Shown here: positions 59,143 to 62,170 of the stretch, piece after piece
Position numbering within the stretch: the first letter of the stretch is position 1
How the letters are laid out: every line of letters starts with the position of its first letter
From: Escherichia coli
GTDB lineage: Bacteria > Pseudomonadota > Gammaproteobacteria > Enterobacterales > Enterobacteriaceae
Strand: one strand, 5' to 3'
NCBI RefSeq assembly: GCF_030384885.1
Contig: NZ_CP128613.1
Length of the DNA stretch: 64,000 bases
Notes under the pieces: generated by a model
Database searches by the model: none
Seen by the model: only the letters and a program-made list of their open reading frames with translations
What the model was told of the DNA's origin: nothing
Translations under genes and position numbers: made by a program

Positions 59143-59583
59143 ATGGACAAGCAACGCGGTTTTACACTTATCGAACTGATGGTGGTTATTGGCATCATTG
59201 CCATTTTAAGCGCCATTGGTATTCCCGCTTATCAAAACTACCTGCGCAAAGCCGCACTCACCGACATGCTACAAACCTTTGTGCCTTACCGTACCGCCGT
59301 AGAGTTGTGCGCGCTGGAACATGGTGGATTAGATACCTGCGACGGTGGCAGCAATGGCATTCCCTCGCCTACCACCACCCGCTATGTTTCAGCCATGAGT
59401 GTGGCAAAGGGCGTGGTGTCGCTGACCGGGCAAGAAAGTCTCAATGGGCTAAGCGTCGTCATGACACCGGGTTGGGATAACGCAAACGGCGTCACCGGCT
59501 GGACGCGCAACTGCAATATTCAAAGTGACAGCGCATTGCAGCAAGCCTGCGAAGATGTCTTTCGCTTTGATGACGCCAACTAA
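59143..59583 (+). CDS. ppdD: Type IV prepilin PpdD
   Basis: 146 aa; class III leader MDKQRGFTLIELMVVIGIIAIL (G/F cleavage site, Glu+5). Confidence 0.93.
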   Translation: MDKQRGFTLIELMVVIGIIAILSAIGIPAYQNYLRKAALTDMLQTFVPYRTAVELCALEHGGLDTCDGGSNGIPSPTTTRYVSAMSVAKGVVSLTGQESLNGLSVVMTPGWDNANGVTGWTRNCNIQSDSALQQACEDVFRFDDAN

Positions 59584-59592
59584 GGAGCGGCA

Positions 59593-60978
59593 ATGAATAT
59601 TCCACAGCTCACCGCCCTGTGTCTGCGTTATCAGGGAGTCTTGCTGGATGCCAGCAAAGAGGTGGTTCATGTTGCGGTGGTCGATGCCCCTTCGCATGAG
59701 CTACTGGACGCATTGCATTTCGCTACCACCAAACGTATTGAGATCACCTGCTGGACGCGCCAACAAATGGAAGGTCACGCCAGTCGCACCCAACAGACAT
59801 TGCCCGTAGCTATTCATGAGAAGCATCAGCCCAAAGCAGAGTTACTGACTCGAACGTTACAATCTGCGCTGGAACAACGCGCGTCTGATATTCATATCGA
59901 ACCAGCGGACAATGCCTACCGCATCCGCTTGCGTATCGACGGTGTATTGCATCCTTTACCGGATGTTTTACCGGATGCCGGAGTCGCATTAACCGCCAGA
60001 TTAAAAGTGCTGGGCAACCTGGATATCGCGGAACATCGCCTGCCACAGGACGGGCAATTCACTGTCGAACTGGGCGGGAACGCCGTCTCATTTCGCATTG
60101 CTACCTTGCCATGTCGCGGCGGTGAAAAGGTGGTATTACGGTTGTTACAGCAGGTGGACCAGGCGCTGGATATCAACACGCTGGGGATGCAACCATCACA
60201 ACTGACTGACTTTACCTACGCCTTGCAGCAACCACAGGGATTGGTGCTGGTAACTGGCCCTACTGGCAGCGGCAAAACGGTCACGCTGTATAGCGCCCTG
60301 CAAACGCTAAATATCGCTGATATTAATATTTGCAGCGTGGAAGATCCGATTGAGATCCCCATAGCCGGACTAAACCAGACGCAAATCCATCCGCGTGCCG
60401 GTCTTACCTTTCAGGGCGTTTTGCGTGCGTTATTGCGCCAGGACCCTGACGTCATCATGATCGGAGAGATCCGCGATGGCGAAACGGCAGAAATTGCCAT
60501 TAAAGCCGCGCAAACGGGCCACCTGGTGTTGTCTACCCTACACACGAATTCCACCTGCGAAACGCTGGTACGTTTACAGCAAATGGGAGTCGCCCGCTGG
60601 ATGCTCTCATCGGCGCTTACGCTGGTAATAGCCCAGCGTCTGGTACGTAAACTTTGCCCACATTGTCGCCTGCAGCAAGGGGAGCCCATCCATATTCCAG
60701 ACAATGTATGGCCGTCGCCGCTGCCCCGCTGGCAAGCACCCGGTTGTGTACATTGCTACCACGGTTTTTATGGTCGCACTGCCTTATTTGAAGTTCTGCC
60801 CATAACACCGTTCATACGTCAGCTTATTTCCGCTAATACCGACGTTGAATCGCTGGAAACGCACGCCCGACAGGCGGGTATGCGAACGCTTTTTGAAAAC
60901 GGCTGCCTGGCCGTGGAGCAAGGCTTAACCACCTTTGAAGAGTTAATCCGCGTATTGGGAATGCCGCATGGCGAGTAA
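59593..60978 (+). CDS. hofB: Type IV pilus assembly ATPase (GspE/PilB family)
   Basis: 461 aa; Walker A GPTGSGKT; tetracysteine motif CPHC...C..C. Confidence 0.92.
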   Translation: MNIPQLTALCLRYQGVLLDASKEVVHVAVVDAPSHELLDALHFATTKRIEITCWTRQQMEGHASRTQQTLPVAIHEKHQPKAELLTRTLQSALEQRASDIHIEPADNAYRIRLRIDGVLHPLPDVLPDAGVALTARLKVLGNLDIAEHRLPQDGQFTVELGGNAVSFRIATLPCRGGEKVVLRLLQQVDQALDINTLGMQPSQLTDFTYALQQPQGLVLVTGPTGSGKTVTLYSALQTLNIADINICSVEDPIEIPIAGLNQTQIHPRAGLTFQGVLRALLRQDPDVIMIGEIRDGETAEIAIKAAQTGHLVLSTLHTNSTCETLVRLQQMGVARWMLSSALTLVIAQRLVRKLCPHCRLQQGEPIHIPDNVWPSPLPRWQAPGCVHCYHGFYGRTALFEVLPITPFIRQLISANTDVESLETHARQAGMRTLFENGCLAVEQGLTTFEELIRVLGMPHGE

Positions 60979-62170
60979 GCAACTCTGGCGCTGGCATGGC
61001 ATAACCGGCGACGGCAATGCGCAAGATGGAATGCTATGGGCAGAAAGCCGTGCTTTGCTGCTTATGGCACTTCAGCAACAGATGGTTACCCCACTTAGCC
61101 TGAAGCGAATCGCCATCAATTCTGCGCAGTGGCGAGGAGATAAAAGCGCGGAAGTCATTCATCAACTGGCGACGCTACTCAAAGCCGGGTTAACCCTTTC
61201 TGAAGGGCTGGCACTGCTTGCGGAACAGCATCCCAGTAAGCAATGGCAAGCGTTACTGCAATCACTGGCGCTCGATCTCGAACAGGGCGTTGCCTTTTCG
61301 AATGCCTTATTACCCTGGTCAGAGGTATTTCCGCCGCTCTATCAGGCAATGATCCGCACGGGGGAATTGACCGGTAAGTTAGATGAATGTTGCTTTGAAC
61401 TTGCTCGACAGCAAAAAGCCCAGCGTCAGTTAGCCGATAAAGTGAAATCAGCGTTGCGTTATCCCATCATCATTTTAGCGATGGCAATAATGGTGGTTGT
61501 GGCAATGCTGCATTTTGTGCTGCCGGAGTTTGCTGCTATTTATAAGACCTTCAACACCCCACTACCGGTACTAACGCAGGGGATCATGACGCTGGCAGAC
61601 TTTAGTGGCGAATGGGGCTGGCTGCTGCTGTTGTTCGGCTTACTGCTGGCAATAGCCAATAAGTTGCTGATGCGCCGCCCGACCTGGCTTATCGCGCGGC
61701 AGAAATGGCTGTTACGCATCCCGATTATGGGTTCACTGATGCGGGGACAAAAACTCACGCAGATCTTTACGATTCTGGCGCTGACTCAAAGTGCAGGCAT
61801 TACTTTTTTACAGGGCGTAGAGAGCGTCAGAGAAACAATGCGCTGCCCGTACTGGGTGCAACTTCTGACACAAATCCAGCACGATATCAGTAACGGTCAT
61901 CCCATCTGGCTGGCGCTAAAAAATACCGGTGAGTTTAGCCCGCTCTGTTTGCAATTAGTGAGAACAGGAGAGGTATCCGGCTCGCTGGATCTCATGTTAG
62001 ACAACCTCGCCCATCATCATCGGGATAACACAATGGCGCTGGCGGATAACCTCGCAGCCTTACTGGAACCGGCGTTGCTGATCATAACGGGAGGAATTAT
62101 CGGTACGCTGGTGGTGGCAATGTATTTGCCAATTTTCCATTTAGGCGATGCGATGAGTGGGATGGGATAA
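60968..62170 (+). CDS. hofC: Type IV pilus inner membrane platform protein (GspF/PilC family)
   Basis: 400 aa; overlaps the hofB stop. Confidence 0.92.
   Translation: MASKQLWRWHGITGDGNAQDGMLWAESRALLLMALQQQMVTPLSLKRIAINSAQWRGDKSAEVIHQLATLLKAGLTLSEGLALLAEQHPSKQWQALLQSLALDLEQGVAFSNALLPWSEVFPPLYQAMIRTGELTGKLDECCFELARQQKAQRQLADKVKSALRYPIIILAMAIMVVVAMLHFVLPEFAAIYKTFNTPLPVLTQGIMTLADFSGEWGWLLLLFGLLLAIANKLLMRRPTWLIARQKWLLRIPIMGSLMRGQKLTQIFTILALTQSAGITFLQGVESVRETMRCPYWVQLLTQIQHDISNGHPIWLALKNTGEFSPLCLQLVRTGEVSGSLDLMLDNLAHHHRDNTMALADNLAALLEPALLIITGGIIGTLVVAMYLPIFHLGDAMSGMG

Follow-up and report, generated by a model that had tools for sequence, protein, structure and literature searches.

An intact ppdD-hofB-hofC type IV pilus operon in Escherichia coli with a mosaic tract in hofB

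Genes and features of the locus

The stretch of DNA analyzed (the window) is 64,000 nucleotides long. At 59143-62170 of its plus strand, the list of open reading frames and their translations gave three consecutive genes, ppdD, hofB, and hofC, with no internal stops (Table 1). They are preceded by aroP-ampE-ampD-nadC and followed by guaC, an order that is the same in K-12 and O157:H7, and their lengths are those of the orthologs in both strains. The K-12 operon (b0108-b0106) further agrees with the present one in PpdD, in its CRP-S-like site, in the 9-nt spacing of ppdD and hofB, and in the 11-nt overlap of hofB and hofC. Because of this short gap and overlap, a single transcript with translational coupling is suggested. 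Alternative-frame open reading frames (58941-59480 on the plus strand, 58568-59125 on the minus strand, and others) lie within or beside well-supported genes and were rejected as spurious.

Table 1. Positions of genes, motifs, and signals at the ppdD-hofB-hofC locus, numbered from the first letter of the window.
Feature	Position	Strand	Remarks
Candidate CRP-S site TTCTTCGTAACGCCTCGCAAAT	58996..59017	+	nadC-ppdD spacer; centred some 136 bp ahead of the ppdD ATG
Shine-Dalgarno AAGGAG for ppdD	59129..59134	+	8 nt ahead of the start codon; direct reading
ppdD (hcpA)	59143..59583	+	Type IVa major prepilin, 146 aa; ATG..TAA; 6-residue leader and 140-residue mature pilin
Shine-Dalgarno AAGGAG for hofB	59582..59587	+	Overlaps the ppdD stop codon; direct reading
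hofB (hcpB; RefSeq "GspE")	59593..60978	+	PilB/GspE-family hexameric assembly ATPase, 461 aa; by equivalog and Pfam
Mosaic tract in hofB	60045..60349	+	aa ~152-253; non-coli Escherichia-like; roughly 300 bp; gene stays unbroken
Codons of HofB Walker A, GPTGSGKT	60256..60279	+	aa 222-229; conserved in all aligned strains
Codons of HofB tetracysteine, CPHC ... CVHC	60655..60756	+	aa 355-358 and 385-388
hofC (hcpC)	60968..62170	+	PilC/GspF-family polytopic inner-membrane platform, 400 aa; start overlaps the hofB end by 11 nt
Perfect 9-bp hairpin GCTGGCGTG-ttactc-CACGCCAGC	62172..62195		Between convergent hofC and guaC

The 51-nt stretch around the hairpin behind hofC had a folding energy of -18.6 kcal/mol (z = -3.3), and 0 of 200 shuffles were as stable. 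There is no T-run behind the hairpin, which probably marks the shared transcript end of hofC and guaC.

Of 5426 complete E. coli genomes, 5423 carry the locus, which is intact also in two non-coli Escherichia lineages. Compared to K-12, dN/dS was 0.08 for hofB and 0.10 for hofC (the range quoted for the two genes is 0.08-0.12), and ppdD was without amino-acid change; values of about 0.1 indicate purifying selection on hofB and hofC. We are highly confident that the locus is the standard, intact core-genome ppdD-hofB-hofC operon of the chromosomal type IVa pilus/competence-pilus machine. Such an operon is already known and ordinary for E. coli, a textbook feature of its core genome; the matching RefSeq genome already has the locus annotated, and intactness is the default state among E. 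coli, not a strain-specific trait. Besides the sister genome described below, the closest complete-genome match to the locus was K_EC180, in which hofC carries a stop at codon 240.

The pilin, the ATPase, and the platform protein

PpdD begins with the leader MDKQRG/FTLIE, in which Gly6, Phe7, and Glu11 are all present, and thus has the form of a class III signal peptide (MDKQRG/FTLIELMVVIGIIAILSAIGIPAY). Two N-terminal models matched above their cut-offs (TIGR02532, 35.9 bits against 16.3; PF07963, 39.9 against 21.2). The equivalog PRK10574/NF007862 scored 269.3 bits (cut-off 138, E 8e-81) and aligned residues 1-145 to model positions 1-144 of 145. PpdD has the same amino-acid sequence as K-12 WP_000360904.1. 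Mature residues 7-146 aligned without gaps to the filament structure from EHEC (PDB 6GV9), with 139 of 140 positions identical; residue 121 is Thr here, as in K-12, and Ala in EHEC. There was nothing notable in this comparison of alleles. By analogy with solved PpdD, the four cysteines (Cys56, 66, 124, and 136) would form two disulfide pairs.

HofB matched the equivalog PRK10436/NF007755 end to end at 813.7 bits (cut-off 617, E 4e-245). In Pfam, T2SSE (PF00437) covered residues 76-453 with 479 bits, and a weak MshEN match was located at 8-69. All four hallmarks of the secretion ATPase superfamily are present: Walker A (Table 1); the Asp box VEDPIE, directly upstream of the conserved IPIAGLNQTQ; the Walker B-type motif VIMIGEIRD (287-295); and the His box TGHLVLSTLH (308-317). 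The C-terminal tetracysteine CxxC...CxxC is likewise present and is a putative zinc-binding motif. The models for PilB (TIGR02538, 478.8 bits against 675.65) and GspE (TIGR02533, 452.3 against 630.25) both scored below their cut-offs; judged by these scores, HofB is a member of the HofB orthologous group and not a bona fide PilB or GspE. Its best solved relatives were the PilB ATPases 5ZFR and 5TSG (E about 1e-105) and GspE 1P9R.

HofC matched the equivalog PRK10573/NF007861 over residues 1-399 (657.2 bits, cut-off 401, E 9e-198). The E-values of the three equivalogs lie well outside anything that chance would give. It contains two tandem T2SSF domains (PF00482 in two stretches, 191 bits). The GspF model TIGR02120 gave 266 bits, below its cut-off of 424, and the closest solved relative was PilC of M. 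xanthus (3JC8, 7e-43). With the open reading frames, the end-to-end equivalogs, and the location of every motif in hand, the preliminary description of three full-length genes with an intact prepilin leader, Walker A motif, and tetracysteine was borne out.

The PilA-PilB-PilC systems of Pseudomonas, Myxococcus, and Geobacter are organized in the same manner, with a major pilin, an extension ATPase with the same motifs, and a platform, and it was among these type IVa pilus cores that the best solved matches (5ZFR, 5TSG, 3JC8) were found. HofB differs from solved PilB chains in being about 100-125 residues shorter (461 versus 566-588 aa), with one weak MshEN-like N-terminal domain, and in scoring under the PilB equivalog cut-off; also in contrast to those systems, the E. 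coli peptidase gene is unlinked. The orthologous operon of EHEC O157:H7, hcpABC (haemorrhagic coli pilus, HCP; 6GV9/6GMS), encodes a pilin with the same four cysteines. Apart from the pilin residue noted above, it differs from the present operon by 19 substitutions in HofB and 14 in HofC.

A mosaic tract in hofB

HofB differs from that of K-12 by 18 residues and HofC by 13, and the hofB DNA is only 94.2% identical, a low value that is due to a 300-bp tract of foreign ancestry. Within 60045-60349, Escherichia sp. E1V33 was the closer sequence (94.8% identity, against 87.5% for K-12/O157); over the rest of the operon, K-12 was closer (96.6%, against 90.6% for E1V33). Informative sites were E1V33-like in 22 of 25 cases inside the tract versus 13 of 200 outside (Fisher p = 1.6e-18). 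Unusual divergence of the entire locus was considered and rejected: the genes on either side keep 97-98% identity to K-12, and the excess is confined mainly to this part of hofB. A smaller dip in identity was seen in hofC around 61170-61470.

A 601-bp query around the tract had a match of at least 99% identity in only 1 of 5426 genomes. An exact, codon-relaxed DNA pattern of the tract returned 0 matches when run against 100,044 GTDB species genomes, which places the exact donor outside these species representatives. With a second pattern, taken from conserved flank, Escherichia sp. E1V33 was the nearest lineage, at 94.8%.

The tract brings 10 residue changes relative to K-12 around the Walker A region. 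A functional swap at the interface of the N2 and C-terminal domains of the ATPase, altering motor activity or the interaction with HofC/HofM, might be imagined, and if true it would mark a lineage in which a usually silent pilus behaves differently. We regard this as very unlikely, as opposed to a neutral recombination scar. The interspecies recombination tract is the one new detail at this locus and a minor population-genetic curiosity.

Control, assembly, and role of the pilus

The core of the candidate CRP-S site (58999-59014) departs from TGCGA-N6-TCGCA at two positions. The site has one and the same sequence in the window, K-12, K_EC180, and O157:H7, and, as placed via the primer sequences of Cameron and Redfield 2006, it falls within the K-12 fragment shifted by CRP (PMC1635313). 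When the 64-kb window was searched for the CRP-S consensus with two or fewer mismatches, 31 matches were obtained versus 41.6 expected, no excess over chance. What supports the assignment is thus the position of the site and its conservation, not the motif itself. A sigma-70 consensus promoter scan of 58800-62400 returned 0 hits (3.2 expected), which is consistent with activator dependence. No RNA family was detected by Rfam in 58700-62500 at E values up to 0.1. For the ppdD leader (59030-59145), an attenuator or a structure that would sequester the RBS was considered and rejected, as z ranged from -0.26 to -1.34 and 20-79 of 200 shuffles were as stable.

Expression of ppdD in K-12 needs Sxy and CRP-cAMP at a weak CRP-S site, and Sxy raises it 90-fold in a CRP- and cAMP-dependent fashion (PMC1635313). 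Induction of sxy leads to processed PpdD, which otherwise 0 of 72 ECOR strains make (PMC3330819). By analogy with K-12, Sxy/CRP control would be expected in the present strain, with hardly any transcription of the operon as long as Sxy (TfoX) and cAMP-CRP are not engaged at the weak upstream CRP-S site. Such dependence would explain the cryptic look of the operon in the laboratory; that it is cryptic in K-12 under laboratory conditions, as the preliminary description had it, agrees with the literature (PMC2649431, PMC2920817, PMC1635313). The statement that it specifies a functional pilus in some pathogenic E. coli was likewise upheld, as EHEC O157:H7 makes HCP pili on Minca medium (PMC2920817). 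Two chaperone-usher loci, at 4444-9320 (minus strand) and 19911-27103 (plus strand), also consist of intact open reading frames, and the count of three pilus loci within 64 kb is thus correct.

The three genes had also been termed a module. Their identities and intactness stand, but self-sufficiency does not: reconstitution of the E. coli system took 13 genes, spread over four loci (bioRxiv 10.1101/856302); ten of these genes fall outside the window, and ppdD-hofB-hofC is one part of a pilus machine. The partner genes were read from a sister genome, the complete NZ_CP027579.1 (strain 2013C-4282), in which 8 of the window's 64000 bases are changed (99.99% identity). There, hofMNOPQ, ppdAB-ygdB-ppdC, and the prepilin peptidase are annotated without pseudogene flags, and the PilT-like yggR is also annotated as intact. 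The K-12-type gsp cluster is absent from that genome, with the exception of the peptidase. This orphan prepilin peptidase is short (155 aa, Peptidase_A24) and lies between bfr and rpsJ, a layout common to 2253 of 5426 complete genomes, among which we take O157:H7 to be included.

In the mechanism proposed, PpdD would be made as a prepilin, cut after Gly6, and methylated on Phe7 by the peptidase encoded elsewhere; the orphan peptidase is assumed to act on PpdD in the present strain. HofB, as a zinc-binding, PilB-like hexameric ATPase, would dock on the inner-membrane platform HofC and power the extraction of pilins from the membrane and their polymerization. The filament would additionally need HofMNOP, the HofQ secretin, and the minor pilins PpdA, PpdB, YgdB, and PpdC from the other loci. 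The strain, going by the partner genes of its sister, has the full gene set for building the PpdD/HCP pilus under suitable Sxy/CRP conditions, and we infer that it may actually produce one.

Instead of an adhesive pilus, the operon might mainly supply the pilin and motor for DNA uptake by a competence-type pseudopilus within the Sxy regulon, which would take in DNA as a nutrient or for transformation; we consider this possible but lean against it. K-12 ppdD shares the CRP-S/Sxy regulon with hofM (yrfD) (PMC1635313), the candidate CRP-S site is conserved here, and Sxy-induced DNA uptake has been studied (PMC3330819). RefSeq names HofM, HofO, and HofP "DNA utilization proteins" and HofQ a "DNA uptake porin". 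The pilABCD competence operon of Haemophilus influenzae has an orthologous role and follows the same CRP-S and Sxy logic (PMC1635313); E. coli differs in having no linked pilD and in that natural transformation has not been demonstrated in it, sxy induction never having given transformants (PMC3330819). Also against this reading, EHEC, with a pilin one residue different, makes long adhesive, cytokine-inducing pili (PMC2920817). This competence side of the operon was absent from the preliminary description. The question concerns physiological role only and leaves the molecular mechanism unchanged; the two roles are inseparable by sequence, and both can coexist.

The preferred reading remains that of an intact operon of the PpdD pilus machine, maintained by selection. 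A relic, intact by chance, never expressed, and decaying, would fit the silence of K-12 and of 72 ECOR strains under laboratory conditions (PMC1635313, PMC3330819), the lack of consensus promoters, and the interrupted hofC of K_EC180. It is nevertheless most improbable given the low dN/dS of hofB and hofC, the invariance of PpdD across distant lineages, the near-universal retention of the locus and its intactness in the two non-coli lineages, and the fact that the system works once it is induced or reconstituted (PMC3330819, PMC2920817, 10.1101/856302). The RefSeq product name "type II secretion system protein GspE" and the matches to the GspE and GspF models would make hofB and hofC components of type II secretion, an idea to which almost no credence can be given. 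Both of those scores fall under the model cut-offs, and the equivalogs specific to HofB and HofC give much larger ones; the gene immediately ahead of the pair encodes a major type IV pilin, and the two are not set in a gspC-O cluster; among solved structures, HofB and HofC come closest to PilB and PilC; and the sister genome is without the K-12-type gsp cluster save for its peptidase. The RefSeq "GspE" label of hofB should not be taken to denote a type II secretion component.

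The operon and its products

The three genes (see the table) were located exactly where the preliminary description had placed them. The identities of the encoded proteins were tested with the NCBIfam equivalog models and their curated cut-offs, and all matches ran end to end: PpdD scored 269 bits against PRK10574 (cut-off 138), HofB 814 bits against PRK10436 (cut-off 617), and HofC 657 bits against PRK10573 (cut-off 401). The genes are thus full length, as had been claimed. Pfam domains were N_methyl and Pilin in PpdD, T2SSE and a weak MshEN in HofB, and two copies of T2SSF in HofC. 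The prepilin leader, Walker A and tetracysteine motifs previously described as intact were all found. The PpdD leader reads MDKQRG|FTLIE (Gly-1, Phe+1, Glu+5), and the protein has four cysteines (56, 66, 124 and 136). HofB contains Walker A (GPTGSGKT, residues 222-229), a Walker B-type motif (VIMIGEIRD, 287-295), the His box (TGHLVLSTLH, 308-317) and the tetracysteine motif (CPHC, 355-358; CVHC, 385-388).

In the RefSeq annotation, the three genes already carry the names ppdD, “gspE” and hofC. Calling HofB “GspE” reflects a quirk in how model PRK10436 is named; the protein's scores against the bona fide GspE and PilB equivalogs both fell short of the NCBIfam cut-offs. The nearest solved structures are PilB ATPases for HofB and PilC for HofC. 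The locus belongs to the known E. coli ppdD-hofBC system (hcpABC in EHEC), and it carries all of the defining features of that system that can be tested from sequence.

Features of the window discussed in this section (window coordinates)
Feature	Position	Strand	Remarks
Four-gene chaperone-usher operon	4444-9320	-	intact; between fhuA and mrcB
yadN-htrE-yadC chaperone-usher operon	19911-27103	+	intact
yadE	30659-31888	-	uninterrupted 409-codon ORF
pdhR-aroP intergenic region	54650-54960		AT-rich, GC ~0.38
Candidate CRP-S site	58996-59017		in nadC-ppdD spacer
Shine-Dalgarno of ppdD	8 nt upstream of start	+	AAGGAG; sequence
ppdD	59143-59583	+	146 aa; ATG start, TAA stop, no internal stops
Shine-Dalgarno of hofB	overlaps ppdD stop codon	+	AAGGAG; sequence
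hofB	59593-60978	+	461 aa; ATG start, TAA stop, no internal stops
Divergent tract in hofB	~60045-60349		
hofC	60968-62170	+	400 aa; ATG start, TAA stop, no internal stops
Identity dip in hofC	61170-61470		weaker than hofB tract
Perfect 9-bp hairpin	62172-62195		between convergent hofC and guaC; fold and sequence

Conservation and genomic setting

A 3.4-kb operon query matched 5424 of the 5426 complete E. coli genomes, essentially at full length in 5423. The exact protein sequences were found on at least 1000 (PpdD), 559 (HofB) and 234 (HofC) public contigs. An intact operon is the norm for the species; the feature is ordinary and nothing new in kind. The surrounding gene order (pdhR-aceEF-lpd ... 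aroP, ampE, ampD, nadC / ppdD, hofB, hofC / convergent guaC, coaE) is the same in the window, K-12 and O157:H7. Identity to K-12 drops locally to ~93% in the pdhR-aroP intergenic region; the comparison strain K_EC180 is still ~97.5% identical there.

The PpdD allele comparison proposed in the preliminary description was carried out. The K-12 protein is the same RefSeq entry (WP_000360904.1), whereas that of O157:H7 differs at one residue (Thr121 in the window, Ala in O157:H7). The EHEC pilus structure 6GV9 aligned to residues 7-146 of the window's PpdD without gaps. Measured against K-12, dN/dS was 0.08 (hofB) and 0.10 (hofC), and ppdD had no replacements. The genes are therefore kept by selection, and are not drifting relics. 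Setting aside the sister genome introduced below, K_EC180 is the complete genome that matches the window best at this locus, and its hofC has a premature stop at codon 240 (L004 14069-15271); the operon is therefore occasionally pseudogenised.

The window, which is E. coli DNA, differed from RefSeq NZ_CP027579.1 (strain 2013C-4282, human stool, USA; 99.99% identity) at only 8 of 64,000 positions, none of them in the operon. One difference, at 31735 (G in the window, A in that record), is the only one in yadE, which is flagged with an “internal stop” in NZ_CP027579.1. The window therefore derives from a sister isolate or from another assembly version.

Both of the chaperone-usher systems mentioned in the preliminary description were also recovered. 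The four-gene operon is missing from K-12. Of the 5426 complete E. coli genomes, only 574 have a homologue, and in 572 of these the identity is only ~84%; the accessory fimbrial locus is therefore represented in the window by a strongly divergent allele.

The hofB tract

The operon is 95.6% identical to K-12, compared to 97-100% for most flanking sequence on either side, and the additional divergence clusters in hofB. Over a tract of ~300 bp, identity falls to 87.5% against K-12, O157 and K_EC180; K-12 and O157 barely differ within it. A 601-bp query around the tract was matched at ≥99% in one complete genome, at 98.3% in one and at 95.8% in one; the remaining 5421 were ≤94.2% identical. The conserved flanking pattern was used against GTDB species representatives, and hofB was recovered from two unclassified Escherichia species. 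The tract was 94.8% identical to one of these, Escherichia sp. E1V33, while the rest of the operon was 90.6% identical to E1V33 vs. 96.6% to K-12. At informative sites (K-12 and O157 the same, E1V33 different), the window was E1V33-like at 22 of 25 within the tract and 13 of 200 outside (Fisher p = 1.6e-18). These patterns identify the tract as a short homologous-recombination import of non-coli Escherichia ancestry, from a donor lineage related to, not identical with, E1V33.

Few complete genomes have the allele, yet 559 public contigs carry it exactly; it is therefore a lineage allele rather than an assembly artefact. The tract introduces 10 residue changes vs. K-12, which flank the Walker A loop without altering it; the reading frame is unbroken and every HofB motif is retained. 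Functional consequences of the foreign tract are unlikely. In the hofC dip, identity to K-12 and O157 is 90-93%, whereas K_EC180 and the window are 99% identical, which suggests that hofC alleles are mosaic as well among E. coli lineages.

Expression and partner genes

ppdD and hofB are separated by 9 nt, and the end of hofB overlaps the start of hofC by 11 nt, a layout that fits a single transcript with translational coupling. The 51-nt stretch holding the hofC-guaC hairpin had a folding energy of -18.6 kcal/mol (z = -3.3). A scan of 58800-62400 revealed no consensus sigma-70 promoter. The 202-bp nadC-ppdD spacer carries a CRP-S-like sequence, TTCTTCGTAACGCCTCGCAAAT, that is invariant in four divergent strains and falls within the K-12 fragment that Cameron and Redfield found to bind CRP weakly (PMC1635313). 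Sxy induces ppdD 90-fold, with full dependence on CRP and cAMP (PMC1635313). The position and conservation of the candidate site support putative Sxy/CRP-S regulation of the operon. Processed PpdD was detected after sxy induction and otherwise in none of 72 ECOR strains (PMC3330819), and EHEC O157:H7 grown on Minca medium produces pili built from PpdD (HcpA) (PMC2920817; PMC2649431). This literature bears out the earlier interpretation of the operon as cryptic in K-12 under laboratory conditions and as specifying a functional pilus in some pathogenic E. coli.

In the proposed mechanism, Sxy and cAMP-CRP would gate expression, a prepilin peptidase would cleave PpdD after Gly6 and methylate Phe7, and a HofB hexamer would drive polymerization on the HofC platform. 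The minor pilins PpdA, PpdB, YgdB and PpdC would prime the filament, whose route would be HofMNOP and HofQ. The E. coli system was reconstituted with 13 genes (10.1101/856302), ten of which lie outside the window; the operon is no stand-alone module. In the sister genome NZ_CP027579.1, hofMNOPQ, ppdAB-ygdB-ppdC and the PilT-like yggR are annotated as intact. So is an orphan 155-aa Peptidase_A24 gene between bfr and rpsJ (4044279-4044746, minus strand; L008:4280-4747), where K-12 has the gspA-O/chiA cluster and the sister genome keeps only this prepilin peptidase. Of the 5426 complete genomes, 2253 have the bfr/peptidase/rpsJ layout, and the orphan enzyme presumably processes PpdD in strains that have it. 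Because the partner genes are all annotated as intact in this near-identical genome, the strain's pilus potential is complete as judged from genes alone. The sister genome also has an ETT2-type type III secretion cluster (4549162-4562607; L009:1-12608), in which at least one gene, of the YscQ/HrcQ family, is frameshifted.
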